Part shown: positions 8,560 through 64,000 of the stretch, one piece after another
How positions within the stretch are numbered: the first letter of the stretch is position 1
Layout: every line of letters begins with the position of its first letter
DNA from: Blasia pusilla
Taxonomy: Eukaryota
Assembly (NCBI GenBank): GCA_050084515.1
Contig: CM114271.1
Location: forward strand, 18,228,001-18,292,000
Direction: 5' to 3'
DNA length: 64,000 nt
Notes under the pieces: model-generated
Databases searched by the model: none
Seen by the model: the letters and a program-made list of their open reading frames with translations, nothing else
Told to the model about the DNA's origin: nothing
Program-made: the position numbers and the translations under genes

Positions 8560-9470
8560 AGGGTATTTAGGTGTTGGATCTCTTTGGAGGGCTCAGCACT
8601 GGGTTAGCTATTGTTTTGCAAGCTAGAGTACGCAAGCAGTAGTACCTATATGTGGAGATTGATGATGTTGCGAGGCGCGCTTCACTTCACCATGTGGCGT
8701 AGTTAGGCCTCCGTTTTCCCAACTTGTTGTCTACATCCGCCATTTAGGGTTACCAGAGTTCCCTACCGAGGAACATTTCATTTTTGGGGGCGTAGGATGT
8801 GGAGCGGGTAGGGACCATAGACTTTGTCATTGCTGGTTGGCCATGTCAGGGCCAGTCAAGTGCTAGATAGGTAGCGGATTAGCTGACTCTCGGTCCATGT
8901 TGTTTGGGAGATCATGCAGATCTTGCGACACTTGCAAAAGCATGAGTCTCGTCCTCTAGCATACATTCTGGAGAATGTGCCGATTTTGGGCGATTGGAGG
9001 TCCTGTGTGGTGACGAGTGCACATCAAGTGCGCGCATAGATCGGCTCGGCAGTTTTGTTGGATGCGGCAAGTGTGGGTTCACGAGCACATCGCCTGCGTC
9101 TTTGGTGGACCAACTTGGTGCCACATGAGGTGTTGCGGAGGACTTATGCAAGAGTGGAGCGGTCCATCGATCACATGCAGTGAGGCACGATGCTTGACCG
9201 CCGTTGACTGTGGTCAATAGGACTAGCATGCCACGAGTAGCCTTTCCCACATTGGTGAGTTTTCCTGCTTCCAATGCATTCAAGAAGGCAAGACCTGGCT
9301 TGGTTTGGGATGACCAAGTACAGAGGTTGGTGGAGCCCAACGCCGATGAGCGAGAGTAAGCGATGGGATTCCCCACAAGAGTGAAGGTAGTATCGTCACT
9401 ATTAGAGACGTCATGTCTTGGGTCATGCGATGGACCTAAAATGCTTGACATGGATTTTCAACTTAGGAGT
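8560..9470 (+). pseudogene. Element A C5 cytosine methyltransferase domain (DNMT3-like), with stop codons
   Basis: Motif I VLDLFGGLSTG (8571), II YVEIDD, IV IAGWPCQG (GWPCQ at 8835-8849), VI YILENVP (ENV at 8971), VIII RAHRLRLWWTN, IX ERE*AMGFP, X HVLG. Confidence 0.9.
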
Positions 9471-9899
9471 AGCTGAGCAGCGTTGTTTGAGGATGCGAAA
9501 GATCACAGTAGTTGCGTTGGTGAGCCCCATGCCTACCAAGACGGTTGAGGCAGTGGCTGGGGGCAAGACCTAAGGAGATCGACACACCATGGTGATCGGG
9601 AGAGATACCCTTGGACTTCTTGGGATGTTTTGCAAATACGTCGAGAGATGGTAGCCACAACATCAAGCGTGGTTTAGGGTACTGCATATGGAGATCAGAT
9701 TTTGCAATTGGATGCATAAGAGTGGTCGAGTTTCGTTGTTCAAGACGGGGTTGCATCATAGCAACCACCTATACCCGCGCCAGAGAGTACTACCGTAGTC
9801 ACGATGGAGACTTGGGAGCCATATATGGGCCCTAAGAGGACAGGAGGAGAGCAGCGCCGGATACATCAATTCCTAAGGAGTTATAGGAGTTGTTTTTCC

Positions 9900-13178: not shown

Positions 13179-15500
13179 CACTAAAAAATGACATGGTTGT
13201 ATGGCCACATTTAGGAGATTGCACTTCCATTGGATATACTGACACCAACATAGAAACCTCGACATCAATGGCAAACTACCTGATTGGGGAAGTACATCAA
13301 TTCCCATATCTTGTTTCCAATGTTAGTATCATACATGTTCTATAATTTGATCATGAACCTATCTACTTTAACATGTTGGTCTCCAAAACCATCTAGAGGC
13401 CGTAGAAAAGTTTACTTTTCTGACCAAATGTCGATATACTTTCCTTCAAGAAAACAAAAGGGAAATTCATCACACTCATCAACATGGCTCTTACGTAGTG
13501 CTCACCCACAGTAAACATGATCGAGTTCAATGGCATCTTACATCAATGCTGCAAAGAAGTCTTACCTTTCCAACTATTCGGAGGCAAGAACATTAGTTCA
13601 AATTCAACATTCTTCTCCCAACTCTAGTTTGACAAGGATTGCAAAGAGGCCCACGTGGAGTTGAATCATTGGTTGAGGCCCCGGGGATCCACAATCTCCA
13701 CACATGTGACAGTTGTAGAACACTTACAAACGATTGGTACGTAGGAAGAAACAAAAATACATTGCCATCAAGATCATGGATTTCACAAAGCAAATGAAAT
13801 ACCAATTGCACTTGCACTAGAGAATACTCGTAAATAGATAAAATAACATTCCACTTCAAGATCTATAAATCTAGACTCACATAAGGTACCCAACTTTACC
13901 ACTCAAACACTACTACTCCCACCAATCTCAGGCCGAATGGGACCCGAGATCTACCGAGACCTCTTCACCATTGAGGACATTACATCAAGCCTCAGAAGGC
14001 TCCATAACAAATGAGAAAATAACATGGGGTGCCACGCTCAGATGTTCAAATTTGCAAGTGAGACAATTGGCTCGACCCTCACCAGAATGTTCAATACTAG
14101 AGTTCAGTAGGGATTCCCAACAGAGTGGCAAATCAATATAATCTACCCACTCTTCAAAGTTGGAGATCTTATAATACCATCCAAATGGAAAACTATCATT
14201 ATGAGCTCCCTTATGGCCAAATTGTATGGGCTTCTGCTCGAAAGGAAAATCAGCGACTGAGCTGAAGAAAAGAACGTGCGAGCCAGAGGACAAGAAGGTT
14301 TTCAACAACCATATAGCACCTTGGATCACCTTCTCACACTCCGAGTATTGATTGAAGAAACTTACAAGTCCAGAATTGGGTACAACCCCAATAAATTGTT
14401 ATGTTGTTTTCTGGACTTCAAGAAGGCATTCGACACAATTCCAAGAGTATTTCTTTGGAAACAACTTGAAGAGTTGGGTGTCCCACCACAACAACTTACA
14501 CCGATCAAGGTCTTATATGCTAAGGTGTTAGCACAAATTGCCACTAAGAAGGGCAGATCTAAAACTTTATCCTCCAACATTGGAATCAAACAAGGATGTC
14601 CCCTATCACCTACACTTTTTGGGCTCTACATTGATAAACTTGAGGAGATGCTCTTTGAAGTTAATGAAGCTCCACCAGAGATAGCATGTTGCCTCATCCC
14701 TGTGCTATTGTATGCACATGATATAATGTTGATGTCTAGAAACCACATAGGAGCTCCAACTCTACTTGAATGAACTCGCAAGCTTTTGCATCAAATCACG
14801 CATGGAAGTCAACTTGCTGAAAACAAAGATAATTGTCTTTGCATCACAGAGCCCTATAACACAAAGGTCACCTTCAACCAAGGATTGCAAAGTGAGAATA
14901 TAGAGATTGTGGGTAAGTACATACATGTGGGGGTACATCTTAAACCAAAAAAAGAATGGAGAACTAATGGAATTTGCAACAAGATCAATGCAAGATTGAG
15001 GGGTTTACACGTACACTGCAATCCAACTACAAAAGAGTGGAACTCTAGCATATTCCAAAAAACTCCATCCCTTCCTCGATCCCTTCAAAGCTCTTGTGAT
15101 CCCAGCCACACTCTATGCATTTGAGGTGTGGGGCCAGAGCCCCAAGGCATGGCCCTAAGGTCTAGAGGTCCCCCATAAACTCTTCATGCAATAGATTATA
15201 GGCATTAGGGGAACCACTCCTCACGACATTCTATTGGTTGAGTTTGGGAAGGTTCTAGTGGACATTCATGCACTTAAAAATATAATCACATTCCTCCAAC
15301 ATCTTCATGATATTTGAGAGGAAAATCCCAAGCATATATCTCTAATCCAGAGCCTTTGAGATTTCTAAACGTAGTGCATCTCTTAGGGAAAAAAATTGCA
15401 CTTTAACTGCAAGGAGTGGCTCATGAAATGGGGCAACTCAATCGATGATATGTCCAAGGCCACCAACTAGGACCTGGCTGAACAACTACACAACAATTAC
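13179..15500 (+). mobile_element. LINE ORF2 remainder (endonuclease C-terminus and RT), degenerate
   Basis: QEGF..YSTLDHL, CFLDFKKAFD, GIKQGCPLSPTLF and LLYAHD (degenerate YADD) in ORF 14276..14773. Confidence 0.85.
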
Positions 15501-18593: not shown

Positions 18594-19994
18594 ACGGAAG
18601 TCTTTGGTTGTATTTGTTATATTCATGTTCATTCTAAAAATATGTTTAAAATTAGATCCCAAATGTGAAACATGTATCTTCATTGGTTATGATGATGGAA
18701 TTAAGGGATATAAGTACTACATTCCATCCTCTAGGCATCTTATTATTAGCAACGATGTTATTTTTTATAAGCTGAAATCATGGTATGCTCCATCTGAGCC
18801 TATTCCACCTCTAAATTCAGCTTTTGAGGGGGAGAATATGACTATAAACCAATAAACATTGCCTAAAACTTTCCCAAGTACTAGTGTAGGATTAGGATAG
18901 GTCATAGATTCTTCAGTTAAATATGTCAATCTATAGTCAGGAATAGTACATGTTCAATCTATTGATATTAGCCATAGCTCAAGTCAGATGTCAGAGGCAT
19001 CCACCTCCAAACAACAACTTCATAGATCAAGTTGAGTTACATCCTATTAATAAATTCAAAAATGAAGGATTTCGTGCAACACATCATGCATATATGATGA
19101 CTATCCTTAAAAAATAGGAACCGAGTTGTTTTGAAGACGTTGCAAGCAATGTCAAATGGACTAAAGCTATGGAGCAGGAGCTTAATGCATTTAGATATCA
19201 ACAGACATGAGAGTTTGTTGATATATCTTCCGGTAAGGAAGTTATTGGTTGCAAATGGGTTTATAAAATCAATTGTAATTAAGACGGTACAGTGAACAAA
19301 TACAAAGCCAGATTGGTAGCTAAGAGCTATTCACAACAATATGGGGATTATGAGGAGATATTTAGCCTTGTTGCAAAGATTACGATTACGAGAACAATTG
19401 TTGCAATTGCATTACGTAAGTATTGGAGACTACATCACATGGACGTCAAGAATGCCTTATTGAATAAAGATCTATATGAGGAGATATATGTGACTCAACC
19501 ATCTCAATATGAGTATCCAGAGTTTTTATTCCGTGTATACAAGTTAAAGAAAGCTCTATACGGGCTCAAGCAAGCTCCAAGAGTTTGGTATTGTAAGATT
19601 ATATACGTCCTACAAGAGTTGGACTTTAGGGTACGTGATTATGACTCCTCGCTATATATCTTGAGAGGACAAGGTCATATGGTTATTATTTTATTGTATG
19701 TTGGCGACGTCTTGATCACTCGGAGTACGGAGTACTTAGGATATAGTATAACAAGTCAAGCTAAAGTTAAGGCATAATTTGATATGAAGGACTTACGAGA
19801 ACTCAAGTATTTCCTTGGTGTTGAGTTAATCAAGGTTTGAGAGAGCATGTAGTTATTATAACAATAATATGTTTTTTACATGCTTTCAAAATAGGGTATG
19901 AAAACTAGTAATCCAATCTTTATATCGTTGGAACAGAGTGTGAAGCTAAGAGTGGATGAAGGAGAGTTGCTAGAAAATTATAATATGTACAATC

Positions 19995-21005
<1,011 letters not shown>

Positions 21006-26696: not shown

Positions 26697-29600
26697 TGTC
26701 GTGAGCATAGATGTCGCTACACAACATACATTGCTATAACCGAACATACACACAAACACGTACGAGACAAGAAGTATCGAAATATCTCCAATTAAATCAA
26801 GTGGATCCAATCTCTCTCAACACCATAGCTCTCAAAATGTGTGCACTCTTACATGTCTCTCTCAATGTCAAACCAAACCCACTCTCCTAATGAGAGGCTT
26901 GGGTTATATTCATAAGGTAAGGGACCCTAATTTCGCCGCCTCGTGCCAAGAGGTTCAACAAAGAGAGAATGAGCTCTCAAGCTCTCTCTCCTTGAGGTAT
27001 ACCCCTTTCCCTTTCCCAAGCTATCTCCTTGGTAACCTATGCTTGCATATCACCTCCTTGGCTCTTGACCTGCTATAGGGGGTTAAAGGAAAATTCCCAA
27101 AGTGGGAAGTCAACTATACCAAATAGGGAAACTTACCCAAAATAATAAGTTTTAATATATGGCCCCCAAATGAGCCGAAACGAAGGGGAAAGATGCTCTC
27201 GTAGGTTACCCGTGGCCTCAGCAGGTCATCCTTGACCTCTTGAGGTTGTCCTCCAGTATCTCCGAAGGCGCTCTACTAGATCTTGCCGATCTATCCTAAA
27301 AGTCATGACAGTTGTCGGACGCATACACATCGCTACACAACATACATCGCTGTCACCAAACATACACACAAACACGCATGATCCCATGCTAACTCATGGC
27401 ATCCAAAAAAAAAGATAAGAAGTACCAAAATATCTCCAATCGCCCCCCTAGTTGGGGGTTAGGTCCCTCTAACTCTAGATAGTCACCTATCCCTACCTAC
27501 CATGATATACATCTCTCGGACGCTAAGAGCAAAAAGGCCGAGTGCTCATGTGGCCACATCGTTTGTCACCTTCTTGTCATCCATGTCACAGACACAAGTC
27601 AGAACCTAGAACTACCTACCATATATACATCGCGGACACATCCATCGTCCCTCAAGAATCCTAGTGAGAGGTGTCGTCAAACATGCCATATGCCACCCTT
27701 GCAAACACCTATCACAGGCTACCATACTGGCTGCACCATGGGCAGAACCACAACTTATATCACAAGCTTGCAGGAACTACGGCTAAGCTCGAATCAACTC
27801 TATCGTCAATGTTCGGAAGATGACATGACGCATGGTTACGCACATGGTCCTTCCAAACCATACCTTCGCGTCCCTCCAATAAGAGAACACCAGATGGCAA
27901 AACCTCACGCACTCTCAAGATGGTGCGTCATGCAGTCACATCCAATATTGTGGGTACCGTCTGCTCCAAGTAGACATAGTCTCCTTGATGAAACCTCCCG
28001 ATAGTAGGTGGATAACCACCTCCCCGAATAGTCGCATACCTCCACGTATCCCGATGCTGCGCAATCGCCAAGTTCTCAAACACCATGGGCATCACTGTCC
28101 GAAACAACTCAACCCTGTGCGAACATGCTTGCATCCATACATCACGGTCATCAAGGTTCAACACCTCACCAACATCTCGACGAATGGCCGCAGGGAAATC
28201 TGGCTCTCGGCCATAAAGCAACAAGTATGGTGAGAAAGACGCTAAGGATGTATGCCTGCTGAATATGTATCCCATCGCCAACCACGGCAAGTGGAGGTCC
28301 CAATCTCCTAGGTGACCTCTCTGCAAGCTATACTTGTCCAATCCTCTCTTCACCGTCTGCAAAACCCTCCCCGCTAGTCCATCCGCCTTAGGTTGATCTC
28401 GCAAAGTGGTGTGGTGGTCAATTAGTGCCAGATCACACAAGGCCTGAAACTCCCTGCGAAACTCTATACCTTGGTCTCTCAATATCTCAGCTGGTGCACG
28501 TAATGACTCAACACTCAATCTAGGAAGGCAAACGCTACTCCCTCACTTGCTTTATTAGGAAATGCAACCAACTCTATCCACTTTGAGAAGTGCTTGACCA
28601 TCACCAACACATAACGATTATGGCACTCCGTCAAAGGCAAAGGTCTTACAAAATCCAAACTCCATCTAAAACCTAAATCTCTGATCAGAAGTGGATGCAA
28701 TTGTGGAGTCGGAGCATTGAACGATGCTCGGACTCGGTCACACACCATGCACCTGGCAACAAACTGCTGAACGTCAGTCTGCATGCCTTGCCACCAATAC
28801 TATATCTGGAGCAAGTTGTACGTCCGCTTCACTCCAAAATGACCCGACTCTTTGTGGGCATGACGCACCAAACGTGCTCTCTACGAAGGATGAGGCACTA
28901 CACGCACTCTACCATCCTCCCAAACTCACAACATATGTGTCTCCTCCCACCGGAACCGTCTGGCTCGCCGTAGGATCCGATCCCGCTCTCTAACACCCAC
29001 TCTGCTCACGACGCTGCCACTACGCAGGTACTCCAAGACCACTCCATCGTCATGAATATCTCGGCCACCTGTCATCTCCTCACCGGACTTTGGATCTAAG
29101 GACTCTCCATCATACCTCGCCATCGAAGTCTCAACAATTTGGCTCTCCATAGCCAACAAGTCCAAATAGGCTGATGGGTGCCATCTTGGCACCAACTCCT
29201 CATCATTCTCACCATGCCAACGAGCTCTAGTCGCATCTTGCTGACTCAGGCATGGATTATGGCTCAAACCATCTGCATCCTAGTTGAGCGTCCAAGGTTT
29301 ATGCACCACCTGGAAGTCATACTCCTCCAACAAAAGAGCCCACCTCGCAAGCTTCCATGTAAGCTTGTCGGACACCATCAACCACTTAAGTGGCTGATGA
29401 TCAGTAATGATAATAAAGGGGTTTTTGAATAAATCACATCTGAAATGTGCAAAAATCCACACCGCAGCCAAGCACTCACCTTCATACGAGCTATACTTTG
29501 CCTCTGCAGCGTTGTTCGAGCGACTAGCGTAAGCCACCACGAACTCTCTACCATCATTGTCATGCTAGGTGAGCACGGCTCCAAGCCCCAACATGCTCCA

Positions 29601-30875
29601 ATCGGTATGCAACTGGAAAGGACGCCCCATGATCGCTCTCCATAATATGGGCGCGGACGTCAATATGTCCTTGAGAAGGTTGAAATGCTCTCTACTGCTC
29701 ATCCCCCCAATTCCACTCCTGATCCACCTTGGTCAGCAAGGTAAGGGGCTTAGAAATCGAACTGAAACCCTTGACGTACCGTTAGAATCCTCGGCTCATA
29801 TCGGTTGGGCGTGGAATGCGTGAAATAGCCTCTATCTTTGTGTGATGCACCCCAAGGCCCCTTGGGAATATCATATGACCAAGGTAATCAATTAGGTCGT
29901 AGAAGAACTTGCACTTTCCTGGATGTAGCTTCAGCTCATGTAATTGCAATCGTCGAAACACCTCCTCTAGATGTCGCTGATGCTCTTCAACCGTGGCGCT
30001 AAAGACTACGATGTCATCAATATAACACCTAGCAAGATCCAGACCTGCCAAGATTGTATCTATGACCCTTTGAAACTCAGTCGGGGCGTTCTTTAACCCA
30101 AATGGTAAGAAACGCCATTGGTACAAACTATCCTTCCTGTGAGGATCGATGCCCCAAGATATCGTCTTTTGCCTGTCCTCCAATCTGATAGGCAACTGAT
30201 GGTATCTGGCTCAAAGATCTAATGAACTGAAGACCTTTGCATGCCCAATAGCATCAAAGATCTCCTCAAGGGTGGGCATGGCATACCTATCTCACTTCAT
30301 CTTCCAATTGATAGGTCGGTAATCTCCACACATCCGCCTATCCGTCCAGTTGCCATGCACATCCTTCTTGGCGGGCATGATAGTGGCAGATGCATACTCT
30401 CCATGCGACGTCTCCACTAGTCCTGCTCCAACCAAGTCATGGCTCCTACTCTGAATCAAAGCCCTCTCCATGTCAATGTACCTGTAGGATCGTTGGAAGA
30501 TCGGCGTGTCGCTCGAAAACTAAATGCGGATCCCTGGACCCTCAAGCATATCCAAGTCATGCATACTAAATGCAAAGCAACTCCTATAACTCCTCAGGAA
30601 CTGATGAATCAGGCGCCGCTCTCCTCTTGTTAACTTAGGGCCCATATTTTGCTCCCAAGTCTTCATCGTGACTACGGTAGTACTCTCCGCCGCGGGTGTA
30701 GATGGTTGCTATGGTGCAACCCCATATCGGACAACAGAACTCAACTGCTCTCCTGCAACCAACTGCAAAATTGGATCTCCATGTGCAGTACCCGGAACTA
30801 CGCTCGATGTTGTGGCTACCATCTCGTGGCGTACCTGCAAAACATCCCAAGAAGTCCAAGGGTGTCTCCCCGATG
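26697..30875 (-). mobile_element. Element B (family 1): 5'-truncated RT-RH-INT-PHD with full B1-A2-B2 3' terminus
   Basis: ORFs 29782..30195 (LPFGL, CYIDD), 29280..29540, 28515..28784 and 27928..28518. PHD at ~27630-27780. B1 27313-27440, gt 27311-27312, A2 26793-27310, B2 26697-26792. Confidence 0.9.
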
Positions 30876-31992
30876 TGTCATGGCGGGTTACTCACTGACT
30901 AACAACTTTCCTATGCTCTTCTTGATTATCTTTTGGAATTCTGAAACTACAAGACTCAACTCTCAGCCCAATAAGATCCACATTCAATTCCGCACATCAG
31001 AAAGCATGAGAGAAGACACTTCTACTGCATCAAAGAGTGGAAAGAGCTAGAAAGTATTACAAGCTTCAGAAAAAAAGACTCTTCAGCTTGGATCATCCCT
31101 CAACAAATTTTCCTGCACACTCACCAAGACTGTTGGGAACCTCAAGATACTCGAAACAATATTGGGGAATTCAAGACACAAGGGAATGATCTATTCTTCT
31201 ACTAATTTACTCTTTAAATGGTCTTTACAATTCCTGATCGATCTTCCTATTCTGATCTAGATTTCTACGTGGTAATCCTAACCTACTCTATTCAGATTCT
31301 CTAACCTCCTTGTTCCGAAGACGGTTGGTTGCCCTGGCAAGTCATTTCCGGTCCCTTTAAACTGCTATGCCGCTCCATTGCTGGCTTCCAAAATTGCCAC
31401 GATGATTTAGTCTTCATGGTCTTCGCGCTCTTTGCAATCTTTGTAGTCTTTATCTTTGCAGTCCTATCTTCGCGCAAAGACTCTTATCCTTTTGTCGCCG
31501 CGAAGAGTCCTCTTTTTTACTTTCTTTCAATCCGCTGCCTTCAAAGCATTTTCCTATCTTTCTATTCCTATTCTTAATACACCTTTCCGCTTTTGTGAAG
31601 ACTCTTTGACTTCTTTTGCTTCTTCCTCTTCCTTCTTTGGGTTCTTAGTCTTTGCTCTTGAGTCTTTGCTCTTCTTTCTTTGTACCCACTCTTCGTTGAC
31701 AGTCTTTTACGCTGTTTTTATTGCGGTCTTCCTTGCGAAGCACCCGTGCTTCCTCTTCTAACTTCTTTTCCTATTTTTTCCTACTTTTACACCATTCTCA
31801 GTCTTCCAAGATAGTCCTTAATCTTCTAACATTTCTTGTCCTCTCATAAGAGTTCTATCAATCACTCTTTCACACAATTTTAGTAAAGTAAGACTCTTTA
31901 CTTCCGGTATTGAGTCTTTAGTCCTTGCTCAAGAAAGACTTATGTAAAAAAATTGATCTTTGTGTCAAAATTTCAAAAACGTGGGCACTACA
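30876..31992. mobile_element. Solo LTR of an unrelated family (~1.1 kb) truncating element B
   Basis: TGTCATGG...GGGCACTACA termini, pyrimidine-rich non-coding interior and sharp boundaries. No clean TSD. Confidence 0.6.
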
Positions 31993-41725: not shown

Positions 41726-42070
41726 GCTACATCTTAGTTAGTCGATATGTAGAATTCAACCGCGTCGACGACATAGAGGGTCAGTGGGTAGTTTGGGTGT
41801 AACTTTGTTCAGAGATGTTGGATGAGGTTGACAACTTGTCCATTGTGTGAGGAATGTCATTTTTGGCGATTTTCCTACTTTGATATTTCTAGCCAAGTAA
41901 CCCGTTGATGAGTCAAAGATCAATGGGTAACTTGTGCTCCATCATATGTTAATGTTTTGAGGCTATTTTTCGGGAAAGAGAATTTTTGGCTCTTCCAAAG
42001 GCTAAAAGAGAGGGACAGATGGCTTTCCCAAGCCATCTTTCCATCATGTTGGTAAGGGGTTACTAGCATA
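41726..42070 (+). repeat. Terminal-repeat-like sequence of a third subfamily, copy 1
   Basis: Similar to 44802-45350 (cttagttag..gggtagtttgggtgtaactt..ccgttga..ctttcccaagccatctttcc) and directly precedes a DNMT fragment. Confidence 0.6.
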
Positions 42071-44800
42071 CACTAAGCGCCCATATTTTGTTGTTGGGGG
42101 CACATGCCTTGGATAGAGGTGGCACCATTCATTTGGTGATTGTAGGATGGCCATGTCAAGATCATTCATCGGCTGGCCAAGGGTTTAGAATGCAGGATCC
42201 GAGGCCAGGATGTTTTAGGAGATGCTACAAATATTCGATACTTGTAGGAGAGTCACATATGTTCTCCGGCGTATATTCTGTAGAACGTGCCACTATTGGG
42301 AGACACTCGTGCACGGGTGATGACGAGTGTGCATCAAGTGAGGTCATGGCTAGGACTTTCCATATTGTTGGATGCCGCGAGAGTTGGATCATACACACAC
42401 TATTTACGGTTATGGTGGACGAACCTTCTATCACTGGAGGTATTGAGCCGAGCTTATGATGGAGTTCAAAGAATACCACAATTGATTGTGGATGCGATCC
42501 TGGGTCTATGGCGTCGGTCTCCTGTGATGACGCTCGATGAACTAGATGATAGATCATCGTAGGCGGTAGCCAATAGGGTGGGGGAGTTGAGGTCAGCCTT
42601 ACCTACGTTGTTGAGCTTCACGATATCCCATGCCTTTTGAAAAGGAGGGCGAGGCATGACTTGGGATGCAAAGATCCGAGCATTAGATGAGTTTACTGAT
42701 AATAAGCGCGAACCCGCCATGGGGTTTACTATTGGTATGTGATACTATGACACTGCCAGATGTGATAGAGGCATCACGATGGACCTCAATTTTCTCACAT
42801 GGATAGTCACTCTAGGTATGGTTGAGCACAGAGGGATGTGAGTATCATCAATTGCATCACGTCCATAATGTCACATCTTCTAGGATAGATCGACAAGATC
42901 TACTAGCGCGCCTTTGGGGATACTATAGGTCAACCTCAAGAGGTTGAGGATGACCTACCAAGGCCACGGGTAACCTGAGAGAGTAGGTTTTCCCTTTGTT
43001 TTGGCTCATTTGGAGCCATATTGAGAAACTTACTATAACAAGTAAGTTACCATTTGAGTATATTTGACTTTCTATTTTGGGAAGTTATCCTTGACCTCTT
43101 ACAGCAGGTCAACAGCCAAGGAGGTGACCTACGAGCATAAGTTACCGTGGAGAGAGATCTTGGGAGAGGGAAGGGAGTATATCTCAAGGAGAGAGAGCTT
43201 GAGCACTCATTCTTTCTTTGTTGAACTTCTTGGCATGAGGCGACAGAGCTATGGTCCTCTTTGACTTGTGTGTATAACCTAAGCCTCTCTTGAGGAGAGT
43301 TGGTTTTGGTTTGATATGAGAGAGATAGAGTTGTGCACCTTGTAAGACATTATGAGAGAGTGTTACTTGATTTAATTCGAGATATTTTGTTACTTATCGT
43401 CTGATGTTTGGATAACATGAGTTAGCATGGGATCGAGAGTGTTTGTGTGTGTATTTGGTGAAAGCGATATATGTTGTGTAACGATGTCTATGCGCACAAC
43501 AATGAGTTAGCGTATTGCTCACATGGTATGTAAAGACATTGGCTAGGGGCGAGGGGAGGAGAGATAGGCATCCATGGACTTCCTGGGACGTCATTTGAGC
43601 AGAGAGTATGGAGGTGGCCAAAGTGGCACATGTTCATTTTTCAAGTGTGGAGCATGATGTGGGATCTAGATCAGAGTGGGATAACTGTAGCAAAGATGGC
43701 TAAGGTTGCTACATAGTAACCCTAGCTACATCGTTCTTTGGTTGCCATATAGCAACCCTAGCTAGACGGGGGTTGCGTCCTCTTCGAGTGAGGTCACGAT
43801 GGAGACTTGGGAGCTTGTGATATGTCTTGAGTTGACAAGAGAAGAGAGACCGTAGATACATAGATTTTTGAGAGGGCATGTGGGATGTTTTTCCTTCAAT
43901 ATAAGAGACTTGGGTACTTTTAAGGATCCCGAGATACGGATAGATTTCACTAATGATATGCCAATCCTTTGTCGATCCTAGAGGTATTTTGACATGGAGC
44001 GAGCCTTGACTCCGAGTAAGAGTCAGGACTTGTGGGAGGCAGTATTGGTGGAGTTATTGCATGAGGAGTATGCATATACCAAAGTCATGCTGGCGAAGAA
44101 GGATATGTATGGCAACTGGATAGATGGGCAGATGTGTAGAGATCACAATCCTATTAACCGGCAGACAAGATTAGATTGGTATGCCATGTCTACTCATGAG
44201 GAGATCTTTTCTTTGGTAGGGCATTCAAAGCAAAGATCTCCTCATGAGTAGACATGGCATACTTTAGCATGGAGATCTTAAGTACTGCCCTCTTTGCTTT
44301 GGTAGGCATCTCCGTGCTGGCTATCATCAACTGCCTATCAGGATGGAGGACAAGAAGAAGACAAATTTTTGGGGGATAGATTGGTTCGCAAGAGATTTTT
44401 TGTAATAGTGGTGGTTCTTACCATTTGGGTTCAAGAACACCCTTATGGAGTTCCAGAGAGTCATGCATAGGATTTTGGCTCGCTTGGATTTTGTACAATG
44501 TTACATAGATGATATTGTTATCTTCAATTCCATGATTGAGGAGCATGAGCGACACCTGGAGGAGGGGTTTTGATCATTGCAATTATATCCAGGCAAGTGC
44601 AAGTTTTTTGAAGAGCAAATTGAGTACTTGGGACAAACCATAAACCATAAGGTGGGTTAGATGTTCAACACATAAAGGTGAAGGCTATTATACAGATTCC
44701 ATGCCCTACAAATGTGAGTCTAGTTCGAGCGTTTCTGGGACACGTAAACATCTGTTGCCAATATATCAAGGGGTTTAGTGCGATTGTGAAGTCTTTGACC
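42070..44800 (+). mobile_element. Element E: degenerate DNMT-RT fragment of the same group
   Basis: LVIVGWPCQDHS (42130-42170), NVPLLGD, LLDAARVGS..LRLWWTNL, and RT motifs LPFG and CYIDD (~44500). Confidence 0.85.
42869..43501 (+). mobile_element. Solo A-B unit of family 1 (633 bp) nested in element E
   Basis: TGTCA...CAACA, with A directly followed by B. Flanks ataa/atga. Confidence 0.85.
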
Positions 44801-44801
44801 T

Positions 44802-48358
<3,557 letters not shown>

Positions 48359-49111
48359 TGTCGTGCGAATCCACATCGTCATACAACATACATCGTTGAC
48401 ATACCATACTTACATACATACAACATAGACGAGAGCATCCACAAACATAAGTGTACCACAACTGAAATCCGTGGAAGACCTACTGTCATAACACACGTAT
48501 AGAATCACATACAATCGAGCCAAACCCACTCCACGATGGGAGAATCCAAGTCGAAGCTTGCGGGAACTACCATAACCAAGAGCTCTACTCACTACCAAGG
48601 CTAACTCCCAACACAACAAGCTCAACTCAAAGAACTAACTGTTCTTTGAGTGCACTCCACACTATATCCTCCAACCTAACAGCGGGCCCTACTGGAAAAG
48701 TCACCCTCAACTGAGTAACCCCCAACCCTGTGTATGGAACCGCATCTCTACCTAGACACTACGGCCCTACATAAGGTATGGCCTCTACTAGCACACTATA
48801 CTCTACGACATAATCCGTATGGTCATGACAGTTGTCATGCGAATCCACATCGTCATAAAACATACATCGCTGATATACCATACTCACATACATACATAAC
48901 ATATACGAGAGTATCCACAAACACAAGTGTACCACAACTCGCCCCCCTAACTAGCGGTTAGGTCCCTCTAACTCCTAGGTAGCCCTATACATCTACAACA
49001 TGCTATACACCTTCTTGGGTGCCCGAATCAAAAGGTCGGGTGCTAGGTTGCCCCATCGTTAGTCGCACATATGTAATCCATATCATGCAAAGATCAAGTC
49101 ATCTACCTCTC

Positions 49112-50257: not shown

Positions 50258-52269
50258 TTGCTACACCTGAGTATGCATGCCACGCCACCAATACTGACCA
50301 AGGAGTAAGCTATATGTACGCTTTATCCCAAAATATCCCAACTCCTCATGGGCATGTCGCACAATGCGCTCTCTTTGAGCCAAATGCGGCACTACTCGTA
50401 CTCTACCATCCTCCCACACACGGAGAATATGTGTTCCCTCCAATCGATACCTCTTAGCACGTTGAAGAACACGGTCTCGCTCCTTGGCACTCACTATGCC
50501 TGGCACCCTACTGGTCCGTAGGAACTCCAACACCAACGCATCATCATGAATATCACGCTGATCCGTACCACCATCTCCAACCTAGGATCTGAAGGCTCGC
50601 CATCTACCCTCTGACTAGAGTAAGATGGCCAGCCATCTTACTCTAGTAAGATGTCATGTGGTCCTCCATACTAGAGTCCACCCCTAACCAACATAAAAAG
50701 GTAGATGCATGCCAACTTGGCACCATCTCCTCATCAACCTCGCCATGCCATCTAGCCCCAGTTGCATCCTCTTGGCTAGTACATGGGTTCCTACTCAACC
50801 CATCAGCATCAAGGTTGGCAACTCGAGGTCTATGTACCACTTGGAAGTCGTACTCCTGTAAGATAAGAGCCCACCGTGCAAGCTTCCCTGTAAGCTTGTC
50901 AGACTCCATCAACCACTTGAGCGGCTGGTGATCAGTAACAAGGGTAAAGTGTGTGCCAAACAAGTAACACACAACCCACACTGCTGCCAAGCACTCTCCC
51001 TCATATGAACTATAGCGCGAAATTGGTTCAAAGGCTTTGCCATAGCACTAAATCCCTTCACATACCTCCGATAGTAGTTCACCAATCCCATGAATTCCTG
51101 AACTCTACTCACATCTACCGGACGAGGAATAAGTGCAATAGCCTCCACCTTTGCTTGCCGAACTCCCAAACCACCTGGATAGATCACATGACCCAAGTAC
51201 TCAACATCCTCATGGAAGAACTTACACTTTTCCGGATGCAAACGTAGACCATGAGCTTTCAACCGCTCAAACACAATCTGCAAATGTATCTGATGCTCCT
51301 CCACCGTGTTACTGAACACCAAGATATCATCCATGTAACACCGAACAAAATCCAACCCTGCTAGGATCCTGTCCATCACCCTCTGAAACTCGGCATGTGC
51401 ATTCTTCAACCCAAAGGGTAAGAATTTCCACTAGTACAAACAATCCTTGCCATGAGAGTTGACACCCCAAAATGTTGTCTTGGCCTTGTCACTCTCTCGA
51501 ATCGGCAATCGATGGTATCTGCCGAAGATCCAAAATCTGAAAATCTTTGCTGTCCCACCACATCAAAGATCTCTCAGGTGTAGGCATGGCATACCTATCG
51601 CCTTGGTCTGCCGATTGATAGGACGGTAATCTCCACACATCCGCCTATCCGTGTAGTTGCCATGCATATCCTTTTTTAGCATGATGGCAAAGTGGGGTGA
51701 TGCATACTCTCCATGCGAAAATTCCACTAATCCAGCCTCCAAAAGGTCCAACGTCCTACTCTGAATCAGGTCCCTCTCCATATCACTATGTTGGTAGGGA
51801 CGATGAAAGATTGGCATATCACTAGCCAAATCAATCCGTATACCGGTCCAACCAAAGCACCCAACTCCTTCATGCTAAAGGCAAAACAACTCCTATAAGT
51901 ACGTAGGAACTGTGTCAAGCGTCATTTCTCACCTCCCGTAAGCTTGGGCCCAAGTAATGGCTCCCAAGTCTCCTCCACTGGCACACTAGAGGGAGAGGAC
52001 GACGCCATTGGTTGCTACGCAACCCCCTCACAAGATGGTACACCCTTAGCTACACCATCATTTGAGCAAATAACTCCTCCACCGGCATGAGCAACCGACT
52101 CCACATGCCCAGCCATTACATCCCATTTACTCCAAGGATGCAAAATACTACTCTCCTCGCCCCCAGCTGATGCCTCTACCATCCCGGTAGCCATCGAGCT
52201 CATCACAAGGGGTGAAAGACCCACAAACATAGTCCGAAGTTGACGCTGCTCGACCATACCAATACTCAA

Positions 52270-53230
52270 AATCCAGGTCAAACAATTCAGGTCCATGGCC
52301 TGACCCAACACATGACATCGTGAAGCCTCATAAATGGAAGCAACCGCTGTCACACCAATAGCAAATCCCATCGCACGCTCTCTCTCATCAGCGTTAGGCT
52401 CCACCAAGTGTCGCACATGAGAATCCTTACAAGCCCGGACCACCTTCCCTGTAGGCATGTGACGAGGGAAAACTCACAAATGTGGGTAGTGCCATCCTAG
52501 GCTGGCCCACATGGTTTACCACTGCCATGGGTGACCGATCAATAACCCTCACCACTTAAGAGAGTCGCCCAGTATCCAAGATACTAGCCATTGTAAGGCA
52601 AGGATCCCAGCTGCATTGCATCATATGCTCGACGTAGAACCTCCCTAGGCAACAAGTTTGTCCACCACAAGCGTGGACGATGTGCACGCAAGCCAACTCA
52701 CGCTGAATCTAACAACACCGCTGGTCCAATCCAAGACCGCATCTCATGAACACTCGCCATCATCCGGGTTCGAGTGTCACCCAACAATGGAACATTCTCC
52801 AAAATGTGAACTGGAGCACGTGCCTGATGAACCTGAAGATATTGTAATACCCGTAATATCTCCCAAAATAATCGAGACCTAGGGTCGTGTAATCCTCACC
52901 ACGACCAGCACGTGTATGACCCTAACATGGCCATCCAGCAATCACCAAATCCACAAGACCAACCCTCTCAAGGTCTTGCGCCCCCAACAATGCAATGTGT
53001 GACGGCAAAGCACGCTGGTATCCACGAATAGCTGATGGTGGCAACAACTCAAGATATCTCCGAATCAATTGACCAATATGTTGGGATGAGACTCTCTGGG
53101 CCGTCTCATCTCGCTCCACATACACGTATCTCCACACAGGAATACAGCTTGCAACACTGCAGCCAAACCAGTGCTCATCCCACCAAAGAGATCTAACACA
53201 CAAATGCCCTCCGGCGGATACTCCTATACA
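52270..53230 (-). pseudogene. Element C cytosine methyltransferase domain
   Basis: LDLFGG (~53180-53195), YVYVERDE, LVIAGWPC*, ENV (~52795), ERERAMGF, RCHVLGQAMDL. Confidence 0.9.
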
Positions 53231-56327: not shown

Positions 56328-59300
56328 TGTCGTGCGAATCCACATCATCATACAACATACATCGCTGACATACCATACTCACATACATACATAACATAGA
56401 CGAGAGTATCCACAAACACAAGTGTACCACAACTCGCCCCCCTAACTGGCAGTTAGGTCCCTCTAACTCCCAGGTAGCCCTATACATCTACAACATGCTA
56501 TACACCTTCTTGGGTGCCCGAATCAGAAGGTCGGGTGCTAGGTTGCCCCATCGTTAGTCGCACATCTGTAATCCATATCATGCAAAGATCAAGTCATCTA
56601 CCTCTCCTAAGTACATCGAGGACAAACCCACCTTCCAGTAGGAACAACATCCAAACGTGGAGTCAAACACATCATGTGCCAACCCCTAGAACACCGATCA
56701 CACACCAACATACAGGCTGCGTTGCAGAGACCCACACAACATGCACCTCAAGCTAGCATGTATCATGGCTAAGCTTGGATCAACAGTACCATCCACATTT
56801 GGAAGATGACATGGCGCACAATTACGCGCATGGTCCTTCCAAACAACTCCATCACGACCCTCCAACATGAGAACTCCAGAAGCTAACACCTCGCGCACTC
56901 ATAAAATTGTGCGGAGTGCCGTCACATCCAACGTTGTCGGGCACTCTGCTGCAAATAGACATAGTCCCCACATAGAACCTACAAATCGATGGTTGATAAC
57001 CTCCACTCGAATGGTTGCATACCGCAACGTATCCTGTGTTGAGCAATGGCAAGATTCTCAAAGGTTGTTGGCATAACTCTCCGAAAAGAGCTCGCTCGTT
57101 GAGAACACACCTCATCCACATTCTCGGGTCATCAAGGTTCACCACCTCACTAGACTCCCGACTAATTGCTTCTGGCAAGTCTGGATCTCGGCCGTATAAC
57201 AGAAAATAAGGTGAGAAGGAAGCCAAGGATGCTTGGCGACTGAACCTATACCCCATGGCTAACCATGGCAACTCAATATCCTAGTCTCCAAGATGCCCCT
57301 TCTGTAGGCCATACTTGCGCAATGCCCTCTTCACCGTCTGAACCACACGCTCAGCCAAACCATCCGCCTCTGGATGATCTCGAGACGTGGTCCGATGATC
57401 AATCAACGCCTTGTCACACAAGACCTGAAACTCACCCTGAAACTTTGGACCCTAGTCGGTCAGCACTTCAGCTGGTGCACCAAAATGACTAAGCACTCTA
57501 TCCAGAAACGCATACGCCGTTCCCTCACTCGCCTTGTCCGGTAATGCCACCAACTCAATCCACTTGGAGAAGTGCTCCACCATCACCAACACATATCGAT
57601 GATGTAAATGCATACCAACAGTAACGGTCCCGCAAAGTCCACACTCCAACGGTAACCCAACCCCATAATAGGCAAGGGGTGTAATTGTGGTGTAGGGGCA
57701 TTAAATGATGCCCTCACCCGGTCACAAACCATACAACGTGACACCAAATCGCTGCACACTGAGTATGCATGCCACGCCACCAATATCGCCAAGGAGTAAG
57801 CTATACGACGCTTTATCCCAAAATGTCCCAACTCCTCATGGGCATGTCGCACAATGCGCTCTCTCGAGCCAAATGTGGCACTACTCGTACTCTACCATCC
57901 TCCCACACACGGAGAATATGTGTTCCCCAATCGATACCTCTTAGCACGTTGAAGAACACGGTCTCGCTCCTTGGCACTCACTATGCCCGGCACCCCTCTT
58001 TGGTCCGTAGGAACTCCAACACCAACGCATCATCATGAATATCACGCTGATCCATACCACCATCTCCAACCTTAGGATCTGAAGGCTCGCCATCTACCCC
58101 TCGACTAGAGTAAGATATCATGTGGTCCTCCATACTAGAGTCCACCCCTAACCAACATAAAAAGACGGATGCATGCCAACCTGGCACCATCTCCTCATCA
58201 ACCTCGCCATGCCATCTAGCCCGGATTGCATCCTCTTGGCTAGTACATGGGTTCCTACTCAACCCATCAAAGCATCAAGGTTGGCAACTCGAGGTCTATG
58301 TACCACTTGGAAGTCATACTCCTGTAAGATAAGAGCCCACCGTGCAAGCTTCCCTGTAAGCTTGTCTGACTCCATCAACCACTTGAGCGGTTGGTGATCA
58401 GTAACAAGGGTAAACGGGTGCCAAACAAGTAACACCTAAAGTGTGCCCATGACCCACACTCTTGCCAAGCACTCTCCCTCATATGAACTATAGCGCGACT
58501 CCATTGCATTATTCGAACGACTTGCATAGGCCACCACAAACTCCATGTGCTCATCATCATGTTGTGTCAACACCGCTCCAAGTCCCAACCTACTCCAATC
58601 GTGTGTAATCTGGAAATGGGCGCCCCGATAGGTCTCCTCAAGATAGGCTCCGCCACCAACGGGCCTTAAGCTCCACAAAAGCTCTCTCGATCATCTCCCA
58701 GTGCCACTCTTGATCTGATTTCAGCAATTGGTTCAAATGCTTTGCCATAGCACTAAATCCCTTCACATACCTCCGATAGTAGTTCGCCAATCCCATGAAT
58801 GCTCAAACTCTACTCACATCTACCGGACGCGGAATAAGTGCAATAGCCTCCACCTTTGCTTGCTGAACTCCCAAACCACCTGGATAGATCACATGACCCA
58901 AGTACTCAACATCCTCATGGAAGAACTTACACTTTCCTAGATGCAAACGTAGACCATGAGCTTTCAACCGCTCAAACACCATCTGCAAATATATCGATGC
59001 TCCTCCACCGTGTTATCGAACACCAAGATATCATCAATGTAACACCGAACAAAATCCAACCCGCTAGGATCCGTCCATCACTCTTTGAAACTCGGGAGGT
59101 GCATTCTTCAACCCAAAGGGTAAGAATTTCCAATGGTACAAACAATCCTTGCCATGAGAGTTGACACCCCAAAATGTTGTATTGGCCTTGTCACTCTCCG
59201 AATCGGCAATTGATGGTATCTCGCCGAAGATCCAAAAATCTGAAAATCTTTGCCTGTCCCACCACATCAAAGATCTCTCAGGTGTAGGCATGGCATACCT

Positions 59301-62300
59301 ATCGCCCCTGGTTTGCCGATTGATAGGACGATAATCTCCACACATCCGCCTATCCGTGTAGTTGCCATGCATATCCTTTTTAGCGAGCATGACAGTGGGC
59401 GATGCATACTCTCCATGCGAAAATTCCACTAATCCGCCTCCAAAAGGTCCAACGTCCTACTCGAATCAAGTCCCTCTCCATATCACTATATCGGTAGGGA
59501 CGACGGAAGATTGGCGTATCACTAGCCAAATCAATCCGTATACCAGGTCCAACCAGAGAACCCAACTCCTTCATGCTAAAGGCAAAACAACTCCTATAAG
59601 CACGTAGGAGGCGTGTCAGCGTCGTTTCTCACCTCCCGTAAGCTTGGGCCCAAGTAATGGCTCCCAAGTCTCCTCCTTTGGCACACTAGAGGGAGAGAAC
59701 GATGCCATTGGCGCACACGCATAACCCCCTCACAAGATGGTACACCCTTAGCTACACCATCATTTGAGCAAATAACTCCTCCACCAAAGCATGAGCAACC
59801 AACTCCACATGCCCACCATTACATCCCATTTACTCCAAGGATGCAAAATACTACTCTCCTCGCCCCCAACCGATGCCTCTACCGCCCCGGAGCCATCGAG
59901 CTCATTACAAGGGGTGGAAGACCCTGACATAGTCCGAAGTCGATTTGCTCGGCCATACCAAGACTCAAAATCCAAGTCAAACAATTCAGGTCCATGGCCT
60001 TTGACCCAACACATGACGTCGTGAAGCCTCGTAAATAGAAGCAAATTTGTCACACCGAGAGCAAATCCCATCGCACGCTCTCTCTCATCAGCGTTAGGCT
60101 CCACCAAGTGTCGCACATGAGAATCCCATACAAGCCCCGGACCACCTTCCCTGTAGGCATGTGACGAGGGAAAACTCACAAATGTGGGTAGTGCCATCCT
60201 AGGCTGGCCCACACGGTTCACCACTGCCATGGGTGACCGATCAATAACCCTCACCACTTGAGAAAGTCGCCCAAAGATATCAAGATACTATCCACCGTAA
60301 GGCGAGGATCGGCCGCTGACCGCATCATATGCTCAACGAGAACCTCCCTAGGCAACAAGTTTGTCCATCACAAGCGTGGACGATGTGCACGCGAGCCAAC
60401 TCGCGCTGCATCCAACAACACCGCTGGTCCAATCCAAGACCGCACCTCATGAACACTCGCCATCATCCGGGTTCGAGTGTCACCCAACAATGGAACATTC
60501 TCCAGAATGTAAGCTAGAGCACGTGTCGATGAACTCTGAAGATGTCGTAACACCCGTAACATCTCCCAAAACAATCGAGACCTAGGGTCATGTAATCCCT
60601 CACCACGACCAGCACGTGTATGACCCTGACATGGCCATCCAACAATCACCAAATCCACAGGACCAACCCTCTCAAGGTCTTGCGGCCCCAACAATGCAAT
60701 GTGTGATGGTAAAGCACGCTGGTACCCACGAATAGATGATGGCGGCAACAACTCGGATATCTCCGCATCAATCGACCAATATGTCGGGATGAGACTCTGG
60801 GCCGTCTCATCTCGCTCCACATACACGTATCTCCGACAGAATACCGCCTGCAACATCGCCGCCAAACCAAGTGCTAATCCCACCAAAGAGATCTAACACA
60901 CAAATACCCTCCGCGGATATCGCCATACAATGGGTGTAGTATCCAAAGGGGATAACCTAACTGGACAGAAGTAGGAGTCCGCCGTGGGGCCTCCTCTTCC
61001 TCGTGAGGTATAATGACCTCACACCAAGCCTCTGCACTAGGCGTCGGCCTCCGCCATAGTGCACCGCTGAACTCCAAAGTGGCACATCCAACGATGAGGA
61101 TGCCACTGCTGCAAAAATAGGGACCTCCTCTACCTCCTCATGCGCAGGAGAATCCATAGCAGAAACATTACCCTCCAAAAAGTCTCCTGGCCAAGTGACT
61201 ACTCCACTAAAACCAGCCATAGATGCTAACACTGTTGGGGAAGACCCTCCTGGTCGAGCCCCAGTAATAAATCTCACAGGAACTTGGCTCATACGTCCAT
61301 CCCCGGACTGCCAACCAGGTCAGAAGACTGTCTCGACCCAAATAATCCATCGAAAACCCATCGGATACAATCGCTCCTCCAACTAGTACATCATACGACT
61401 CGGCTGATGTGACTACCGCAGATACTCCCAACCGGGACCTATCAGTCGCATGATTTGGTCTCAAGTGTACAGAAAACATCTCCCGTGTCATGAATTGAGA
61501 CCTATCATTGGCTCCTCCAAGTGATGTTTGAATCTGGAATGGGCAAGACTCAAGCTATGACCTCCGAATACCCAAACCAATACATGCCGCCTTTCCCAAC
61601 ATCAAGGTTGGGCACCGTGAGTCTAACAAGACTCTATCTGGTCTATACACTGTCTGTAGGACTCACCAATCGGAAGATCCCACCGGTTGTCCAACATACA
61701 TACACCAGGTGTAAGCCTCTCACGATCAATGGCTGGCCGGGCTGGTAATGCATCCATCTTCGCCGCGCTTGCCAAGTAGCATTGGTACTCAATGCTACTC
61801 TTGACATAGAGGGTCGCTCCACCGCAACACCCTCATCCACCTCAACACGTGTAGCAGTAACACCCCCACGTTCACACAACGTGGCTGCTAACTGAAATAC
61901 AGGAGCTAAGTCAACTCCTAAAGCCATCGCCCGTGGTGAAAACAATGGGGATCCCAACACTGAAGTTGCCATCCGCAATACTGCATTGGATGCTGCACCC
62001 GTGTCTACTACACGCGATGTAGATGCCTCAGTCCCCACTGTCGGCTCAATAGGCTGCGTAGGAACCATGGATGGAGTCCTAAGCACCTCAGACAACAAGA
62101 ATGACTGGGGAAGCCTAGCCTGCCTCCCAGCCTCACCCCTCTGTGGGTCCAACTCCACAGTAGCACCACGTGGCTCTGACGCTCGAGTGGCTCCTCTCAG
62201 AATCGCTGGTGATGCCTCAACTTTGTCTTTGCACTCGCCATATAAGAGAGATCATCCCTCCATAAGAGGTGGAAGCCCTCGCTCCCGAACCCGATCTATC

Positions 62301-64000
62301 TTTGGATATCGACCATAGTAGCCAACTTCTGCTCCAATCTGCTCAATCTTGGCGCCATAGTCGACTGTCGTAGTGGTAGGGGTAGCCACCGTAGGCTCTC
62401 CAACCACTGGTCCACCTCTACCACCCCTACCACCTCTACCACCTCGGCCTCTCGGAGCTACTCCACCACGGCCACGGCCTGATCTCAACTCTGGATGAAG
62501 ATCAAAGCAACGCTCTCGAGGATGACCTAGTCTCCCGCAATGATCACACTGAGTTGGGGCCGACCGAGGCCCATGCTCCAAAGTCCGTCTCCCATCCTCT
62601 TGGGGACAAAACTTCCTAACATGATCATCTCCACATGTCCAACATGATCGCCCTTGCTTGCTGGGGCAGCAAATGAAGGCAATGGTCTCTGCACAAATGT
62701 CCCTCTAGGACTTGATCGAGGTCGCGTGTACCCCCACGACTCCCATTGCTACTACCACCACCACTACTACGAGACTGTGAGGTGGGCGGTGAACACGAGA
62801 AGTAGTAGTTGTATCCCCATGAATGCGGATGTCACCACTCTCTCCTTCACCATGTTAAGCTCAATCTTCTCGGGATAGAGCAAACACATGGGTCAATGTG
62901 GGTGAATCATCACTCATAAGAGTAGCATCACGCACCCTATGGCGCAAATCTCTGTCCAAGATCCCATACCAAAATCGACTTCTGATCCTCGGTCACACCT
63001 GGGTAACTGAAATCAGCGTCGATACGCTGGCGTGTATGCCTCACTTAAGACTCTCACCACCTTTCGCTCAAAGTCCTGAAGATTCCTCAACTTCTCCGTC
63101 TTCACTCCTTGATAGTTCTTCTTCAACCTCTTGAAGAACTCGAACGGGCTAAACGATGGTGGGGCACTAGTACCTCCACTAGTACCCCCACTAGTACCTC
63201 CACTTTGGTACCCCCACTCCGGCTTGTACTCGTACCACTCAACGTCGGGCTGGCTGGCATAGTAGGAGCACTACTACCAATACCACCATGGGTGATAGAC
63301 ACATAGCCTGGAGACCAATATTGTCTCCATGCCTCAATCTCAGCAACATGGTCCTTCCTAAACTCATGGTAATCATCCATGGGTGGTCCTTCCAAATCTT
63401 TGAAACAACCCTTCCAAGCCAAGAAGGGTGTAAACAATGGCGTTCCGCAACATCTGCATATCACACCACGTATCAAACTTCTGCATGAAGTCCTCCAACT
63501 CAATGGTACCCACTGCACCCGAGTATCGTCGTGGGCCCTTCATGGCCCCATATCCACCGTCCATGTCCCAAATCAATGGAGTTGCAACACTCGATAACAA
63601 CGTAGAAGACTCGATGTTTGGAACACCCTCGTCCTCCTCTTCATCAACCGTCGGAAGTGGAAAAGGTAGCCGATACCTAAATCCACTCCGTGTGAAACCA
63701 CCACTGTCCGCACCACGGTCCCCAACCAGACCACCCGACAGCTCCGTGATGACCAACGCCGATGCCGCACCACCACCAAATTACCCAAATGACGTCGATG
63801 TCGCTCTACTATTGTAGCTCTACTAGCTATGGGTGTAGGCAATCTAACCTCTCATCACTACAAGAAGTCTCCCACAGTTTACTGGTCATCACTCCAGCCT
63901 CACTATCAATAGCACACAGGAGTAACACTACTCTGGAAATCAACGTCAACCCTAACAATGGGCGCGCAAGCAAGAAGCACGATGGAGGGGATCCAGACAC
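56328..64000 (-). mobile_element. Element D (family 2), same architecture, ends in repeat B only; 5' end is outside the window
   Basis: Collinear with C from PHD to gag. B at 56328-56434. Knuckle CDHCGRLGHPRERC and RGG box in 62252..62581. Many 1-bp frameshifts. Confidence 0.92.
59980..60910 (-). pseudogene. Element D cytosine methyltransferase domain (best preserved catalytic core)
   Basis: ORF 60368..60886 reads VDLVIVGWPCQGHTRAGRGEGLHDPRSRLF...YILENVP...GSRAHRPRL. ORF 59760..60257 carries ERERAMGF. Confidence 0.92.

Follow-up and report, generated by a model that had tools for sequence, protein, structure and literature searches.

A DNMT3-like methyltransferase domain in the Gag-protease reading frame of a high-copy Ty3/Gypsy-type retrotransposon family from a bryophyte-type land plant

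Why transposons carry the class of enzyme that silences them is an open question. The closest known system to the element described here is KnitGypsy-Dnmt3 of Klebsormidium nitens (de Mendoza et al. 2018, PMC5890265). According to the available text of that paper, this one published Gypsy case gave no methylation in yeast, a result that its authors call inconclusive. The same text describes SymbioDIRS-Dnmt3 of Symbiodinium, which is also a retrotransposon-borne Dnmt3-like enzyme associated with split repeats and which methylates CG de novo in yeast. A 2026 preprint mentions 'streptophytes (Gypsy-DNMT3)' in one line, and a similar line stands in PMC12344493; the available text of PMC9477723, PMC9985172, PMC11982613 and bioRxiv 2021.02.12.428880 contains no mention of such elements. 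Our literature search found no paper describing Gypsy-DNMT3 elements of land plants or chlorophytes; supplementary trees, which lay outside the search, may include bryophyte copies.

Here we describe a window of 64,000 nucleotides, the whole stretch of DNA that was analysed, which contains four methyltransferase copies (A to D). Elements of this kind are known; the host range reported here is new, and the expression layout is distinct. To the published picture we add that the elements are flanked by 4-bp target duplications, that copy D is inserted within copy C, that the family is transcribed in sense, and that an in-frame stop followed by CAR-YYN is conserved between DNMT and RT. The family is abundant and transcribed, occurs in the tractable liverwort Marchantia and has natural uninterrupted domains, which makes enzyme activity, sequence context and self-methylation of cDNA testable in a land plant. 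Counts of DNMT genes in bryophyte genomes can be inflated by such transposon copies.

Methyltransferase copies in the window

The features of the methyltransferase-bearing elements are listed in Table 1. Their domain set, Gag-protease-DNMT and then RT-RNaseH-integrase-PHD, is of the Ty3/Gypsy type, with protease, RT, RNase H and integrase in the order expected for it. Repeat A of copy D lies just outside the window (65253-65620) and is also preceded by AAGT. Copy D (A-coding-B, flanked by AAGT) is nested in the 5' part of copy C (flanked by ACTA), and the two are separate insertions. The earlier proposal to resurrect a consensus of copies C and D was therefore misframed, and it is also unneeded since natural uninterrupted domains exist. 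The stop junction of copy D has decayed (near 59710).

Table 1. Features of the methyltransferase-bearing elements (positions in the window).
Feature	Positions	Strand	Remarks
Gag remnant, copy D	62783..63543	-	weak Retrotrans_gag match on related natural ORF
Zinc-knuckle region, copy D	62489..62659	-	
Aspartic protease remnant, copy D	61342..61650	-	Asp_protease_2 on homologues
C5 cytosine methyltransferase domain, copy D	59945..60908	-	DNMT3-like; motif order canonical (I to X); interrupted by indels and stops
Stop-free 174-codon frame with PCQ, ENV and RxR, copy D	60371..60892	-	start region partly out of register
Stop codon within motif VIII, copy D	60368..60370	-	sequence there RPRL*WTN
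Reverse transcriptase remnant, copy D	58734..59535	-	
RNase H remnant, copy D	58271..58615	-	
Integrase remnant, copy D	57143..57926	-	
PHD finger at integrase end, copy D	56610..56723	-	PF00628 on copy C
Terminal repeat B closing copy D	56328..56434	-	then 4-bp target duplication AAGT
Methyltransferase domain, copy C (older element)	52246..53208	-	
In-frame stop and CAACCA between DNMT and RT, copy C	52009..52017	-	conserved, intact
B-A-B terminal repeats closing copy C	48359..48939	-	4-bp target duplication ACTA
Methyltransferase domain, copy A	8562..9480	+	more diverged subfamily
Methyltransferase remnant, copy B	42052..42829	+	more diverged subfamily

GWPCQ at 60640 (PCQ at 60640-60629), LENVP at 60505 and RAHRPRL at 60382 all lie inside the 174-codon frame on the minus strand. 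This frame matched Pfam PF00145 (DNA_methylase) above the cut-off, with an E value of 2e-9. The PC-ENV-RxR pattern with the spacing seen in copy D occurred once in the 64-kb window and in 0 of 200 shuffles. A sequence-only reading had placed the catalytic PCQ, ENV and R.R motifs of copy D in one frame and had reported an order of motifs that is not permuted. Both statements stand as far as the three catalytic motifs (60892-60371) and the order I to X are concerned, the latter from the motif positions and from colinearity with DNMT3A. Motif I (LDLFGG, 60896), motif IX and the segment ERAMGF (60080) lie in another frame, and the string RPRLWWTN that had been attributed to this copy is split by the stop codon in motif VIII.

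Over the methyltransferase domain (60908-59945), copy D was 94.8% identical in nucleotide sequence to a natural uninterrupted copy, from which it was separated by 15 indel events, 14 of them frame-breaking, and by two in-register stops, so that parts of the 174-codon frame are out of register. The domain of copy C contained fewer indels (5) but three stops in the same comparison. The description of copy D as the best-preserved copy thus applies to the four copies of the window, among which it keeps three catalytic motifs in one frame, and fails genome-wide, where uninterrupted domains were present. As a whole (56328-64000), copy D showed 109 indel events in 7.6 kb, compared with 13-72 in 11 other copies, and few substitutions at CHH and A/T sites despite this high number of indels. 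Copy D may be a younger insertion in which part of the indels stem from errors of the assembly. The window copy itself is ordinary dead debris of a high-copy retrotransposon.

Several other repeats were observed in the window. At 27300-31000 (minus strand) and 43800-48330 (plus strand) lie pieces of related elements that contain RT, RNase H and integrase and are about 70% identical to copies C and D; the former has a PHD and no adjoining DNMT. A Copia-type RT (RVT_2) was found at 19283-19777, an unrelated RVT_1 fragment at 14261-14773, a degenerate array of tandem units of 51 and 63 bp at 611-1448, and long AG/GT and TG microsatellites at 20240-20872 and 45076-45324.

The element family and its enzyme

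In one natural copy, a single ORF of 1,254 aa spans Gag, the zinc knuckle, the protease and the complete DNMT. Among the 30 top loci, the domain was stop-free in a single frame at four, one of which has an 11-residue gap. The exact 20-mer of the catalytic loop occurred 1,073 times in the 390-Mb assembly. A protein query of the genome gave 10,662 first-look candidates, and the 150 that were scored were 76-100% identical.

The elements lacked two ordinary identical LTRs and instead carried split repeats, a 368-bp repeat A and a 110-bp repeat B, in the arrangement A-coding-B-A-B. This arrangement was present in 8 of 11 copies examined; two were without the 5' A in the fetched stretch and one consisted of A...B only. 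The same type of arrangement was found at two metagenome loci, in full at one of them (L051). Elements begin with TG and end with CA, and a perfect 4-bp target duplication, read from the flanks, was present in seven of the eight copies with the full arrangement. The B-A junction occurred 640 times in the genome. The inner B-A junction (for example at window position 48830) resembles a circle junction, with the CA and TG ends meeting over two bases; it hints at a way for split-repeat elements to produce ends ready for integrase. The two A copies of one element were 92.7-95.3% identical in seven elements and 99.5% identical in one, which indicates old insertions for the most part and one or more recent ones.

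Among named homologues the closest were those of liverworts (Marchantia 79%, Calypogeia 80%, also Riccia) and of Sphagnum, which points to a bryophyte host. Marchantia Mp4g09160, Mp8g17980 and several models on chromosome V, annotated as hypothetical proteins, are Gag-protease-DNMT ORFs. DNMT identities of 72-80% among this genome, liverworts and Sphagnum are high for such distant lineages and may reflect strong constraint or horizontal transfer. A second architecture, RT-RNaseH-DNMT-integrase-PHD, was complete in 30 of 64 long distant representatives, most of the others being parts of it, and includes records named Chromochloris, Haematococcus and Monoraphidium. Both architectures fell within the same DNMT clade of the tree.

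The enzyme resembles DNMT3 in sequence and in predicted structure, as the sequence-only reading had proposed. The best PDB matches of a natural uninterrupted domain were DNMT3A (58 bits) and DNMT3B (48), followed by DRM (20-33) and HhaI (21). With a profile of 56 family members the scores were 96-103 bits for DNMT3A, 90-95 for DNMT3B, 54-64 for DRM, 40 for HhaI and 29 for DNMT2; the phage DNMT3-like group is absent from the PDB matches, so that this ranking does not bear against kinship with phage enzymes. An AlphaFold model of a natural uninterrupted domain (pLDDT 95.9) matched DNMT3A/B best in a fold search, with Z 29.8 and an rmsd of 2.5 A over 271 residues, compared with Z 24.4 for HhaI. 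Residues 1-322 of the model, the whole domain, were colinear with DNMT3A 633-909. Motif IV reads GWPCQ, not the GSPCN of DNMT3A and DRM; the ER..GF segment is aligned with that of DNMT3A at the same spacing.

Host methyltransferase genes were examined in the same assembly. Two near-identical DRM genes lie 66 kb apart on opposite strands (L127 310-1641, L128 1380-2603). Both catalytic domains are intronless and circularly permuted, unlike the transposon domain. Five intron-blind searches for a host DNMT3 gene were negative: the sole genome match to DUF3444 was a DnaJ-type protein, the GGSPCN pattern found only the two DRMs and a second pattern had no match, and queries with phage enzymes and DRM found none. 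The plant DNMT3 gene consists of a methyltransferase followed by DUF3444 (PMC6453930, available text), and no DUF3444 follows the transposon methyltransferase. Three gene-dense stretches, L129 and L130 on contig C23 and L148 on contig C20, contained intronless methyltransferases of prokaryotic type with terminase-like neighbours and probably entered the assembly as contamination from phage or bacteria.

The conserved stop, selection and expression

ORF1 ends 76-79 codons past the DNMT in this genome, Marchantia and Calypogeia, and the RT follows in the same frame. In the Marchantia gene models the ORF ends 77 aa beyond the DNMT, and the order PR-DNMT-RT is present both in these models and in metagenome loci. 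The conserved in-frame stop between DNMT and RT places the enzyme in the Gag-protease ORF. The junction TAG-CARCCA was found in 14 of 32 aligned junctions, one of which is the reference's own locus, and exact TAG-CARCCA junctions numbered 632 genome-wide. Of 80 metagenome loci, which come from few contig sets and are non-independent, 58 span both sides of the junction. TAG or TAA followed by CAR-YY stood at the fixed place in 52 of these 58, and the frame was kept in 43. Most metagenome junctions read CAACCC followed by ATG, which departs from strict CARYYA; an ATG also directly follows the hexamer in this genome. Strict CARYYA without a following ATG was found in four of the 58, at three loci of only 50% identity and at one of 66%. 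In the three most distant loci the second codon changes the amino acid while YYA is retained. No unusual RNA structure was found after the stop (z -0.2 and -1.3). CARYYA is a known signal for stop readthrough (PMC4132726, available text), and the junction sequences suggest that RT and integrase would be made by readthrough after Gag-protease-DNMT.

The DNMT of the family is under purifying selection. The catalytic C was kept in 55 of 56 aligned members, the E in all 56 and the two arginines of RxR in 54 of 56 each. PC, ENV, RxR, the SAM-binding motif I and PF00145, which define a C5 methyltransferase, are all present at the level of the family, copy D being broken. The dN/dS of the DNMT was 0.12-0.20 in all eight between-lineage pairs, and that of the RT was 0.05-0.27 in the five unsaturated pairs of seven. 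Three within-genome pairs gave 0.42-0.88 for the DNMT, as expected after insertion.

The family is transcribed in sense. In each of three RNA-seq runs, which belong to a single study and are connected with this genome only through the species label of its best DNA match, 4,014-4,446 reads mapped along the whole element, nearly all on one strand. For the window as such, no matching RNA run was listed. Depth over the DNMT was 40-89 on this strand and less than 5 on the other, the former being sense for the usual library type. Reads in all three runs skipped about 1 kb of the integrase (L031 7774-8780), with nine other letters in between, which suggests a transcribed deleted copy.

Relative to the youngest copy, transitions in 12 copies affected 8.0% of CG, 9.5% of CHG, 2.1% of CHH and 1.8% of A/T sites; ordinary host methylation alone would suffice for the excess at CG and CHG. 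CG depletion gave no sign of self-methylation, the observed/expected ratio being 0.65 in the element against 0.35 and 0.52 in neighbouring RT-bearing fragments.

Proposed function, origin and comparison with known systems

Copy D is a dead member of a Ty3/Gypsy-type family, and on balance we lean towards the view that this family uses readthrough, carries its DNMT in the particle and methylates its own cDNA. In working members, ORF1 encodes Gag, zinc knuckle, protease and the DNMT3-like methyltransferase and ends at the in-frame stop with CAR-YYN, with RT, RNase H, integrase and PHD finger downstream in the same frame. Occasional readthrough of the stop would give RT and integrase, while the DNMT would be produced at Gag-like levels, packaged in the particle and freed by the protease. 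There it may methylate cytosines of the new cDNA of the element, so that the inserted copy would be pre-marked. The PHD finger probably reads histone tails and would steer integration, and the inserted copies decay with excess CG and CHG transitions. In the second architecture the DNMT stands between RNase H and integrase, so Gag-level amounts would not be necessary for all relatives.

Other readings can be considered. Translation of RT and integrase could begin anew at the ATG two codons past the stop, through reinitiation or internal initiation. The position of this ATG, right after the hexamer here and after CAACCC in most metagenome loci, would suit such a start; we regard it as rather unlikely because the three most distant loci and the 66% locus have strict CARYYA and no ATG, and because the frame is kept across the stop in 43 of 58 junctions. 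The DNMT might act instead in the nucleus on chromosomal DNA, either its own copies or the host genome, limiting itself or adding to the host methylome. The presence of the catalytic-loop 20-mer in more than 1,000 copies of a transcribed family agrees with this, as does the failure of the intron-blind searches, which miss intron-split genes, to find a host DNMT3. Such a nuclear role is unlikely, as the fixed place of the domain within a protease-processed Gag polyprotein points to the particle and as the Klebsormidium methylome shows nothing unusual in the available text of PMC5890265. An equally improbable alternative is that the domain was kept as a DNA- or RNA-binding module or as an RNA methylase, without DNA methylation. 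The negative yeast assay of the related Klebsormidium enzyme (PMC5890265, available text) would fit it, and three results argue against it: the retention of catalytic C, E and RxR in 54-56 of 56 members, a fold nearest to the DNA enzymes DNMT3A/B, and a DNMT2 score of 29 bits compared with 96-103 for DNMT3A. Finally, a host DNMT3 gene or retro-pseudogene lying among transposons, for which the DNMT3-like sequence and fold would speak, is refuted by the fixed site between protease and RT in frame with Gag, by a copy number of 1,073 or more and by target duplications at the element ends; the absence of DUF3444 from the ORF also contradicts it.

The origin of the domain allows two readings. Capture from a host DNMT3 ancestor, which the sequence-only reading had proposed, is plausible and rests mainly on a published tree in which the Klebsormidium transposon enzymes group with Dnmt3 (PMC5890265, available text). 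Our own trees cover transposon, phage/prokaryote and DRM enzymes, eukaryotic DNMT3 being absent: no such protein was named, or built in that way, among the 120 of 2,131 matches listed. A source in a phage or prokaryotic DNMT3-like methyltransferase is possible and in our view the weaker candidate. PCQ and WTN are present in the fetched phage enzymes, the nearest Atlas clusters are mostly viral (0.96-0.97), and single-domain phage proteins scored 57-78 bits on the family profile (--max) compared with 48 for host DRM; higher totals in the phage search are sums over several stretches, the best single stretches being 45-67 bits. Transposon and phage enzymes also formed one side of a deep split in the best tree, with a support of only 71/15. 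Against a phage source, the transposon enzymes formed a clade of their own (100/100) that was separate from the DNMT3-like clade of phage and prokaryotes (99/99) and was not nested within it, grouping of transposon enzymes with DRM was not rejected (p-AU 0.35-0.44), DNMT3A scored higher at 96-103 bits (default filters, versus --max for the phage scores), the ER..GF segment aligns with DNMT3A in sequence and spacing, and the published tree places the Klebsormidium enzymes with Dnmt3. The 23-row tree was inferred carefully and contains two long branches; a 46-row tree made in quick mode agreed with it.

A wider hypothesis, which we advance only tentatively, is that a DNMT3-like enzyme has stayed active in an old green-plant clade of split-repeat integrase retrotransposons, from chlorophytes through to bryophytes and at two sites of the polyprotein, the bryophyte members using readthrough so that the particle contains Gag-level amounts of a DNMT that methylates cDNA ahead of integration. 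If this is true, more than 1,000 partly transcribed copies may feed the host methylome. On the same tentative footing, several Marchantia 'hypothetical proteins' would be such enzymes.

The transposon enzyme shares a colinear fold and motif order, AHRxRxxWxNL and ER..GF with the DNMT3 enzymes of animal hosts and of non-flowering plant hosts (PDB DNMT3A/B; Yaari et al. 2019, PMC6453930, available text). It differs from them in its identity of about 25%, in PCQ for PCN and in an insert after motif II, and it has no DUF3444 and no introns and is part of a polyprotein. Plant DRM, represented by the two host genes, belongs to the DNMT3 superfamily and is 31% identical over motifs I-V, but DRM is permuted and this domain is not. 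With CARYYA readthrough of the tobacco mosaic virus type (PMC4132726, available text) the junction has in common an in-frame UAG with CARYYA and no strong downstream fold, whereas most metagenome copies have CARYYC and ATG, and readthrough of the present junction is putative. SymbioDIRS-Dnmt3 is described in the available text as a tyrosine recombinase element, while the present family has a DDE integrase, a PHD finger and 4-bp target duplications.

KnitGypsy-Dnmt3, as described in the available text of PMC5890265, is closer in several respects. It shares with the present family the Gypsy domain set, an intronless non-permuted Dnmt3-like domain, DIRS-like A-coding-B-A-B repeats (here in 8 of 11 copies) and purifying selection, the Ka/Ks of its DNMT being about 0.2 or lower. 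The comparison is by description, no match labelled Klebsormidium being present among the homologues listed. Its host is a green alga, whereas the present family occurs in a bryophyte-type land plant in more than 1,000 copies. In KnitGypsy-Dnmt3 the DNMT shares an ORF with RT and RNase H, whereas here it belongs to the Gag-protease ORF and a conserved stop comes before the RT; in one distant relative (P0199) DNMT and RT are continuous with no stop between them. Because of this difference in ORF sharing, the present family is a variant that works like KnitGypsy-Dnmt3 rather than a strict member of it.
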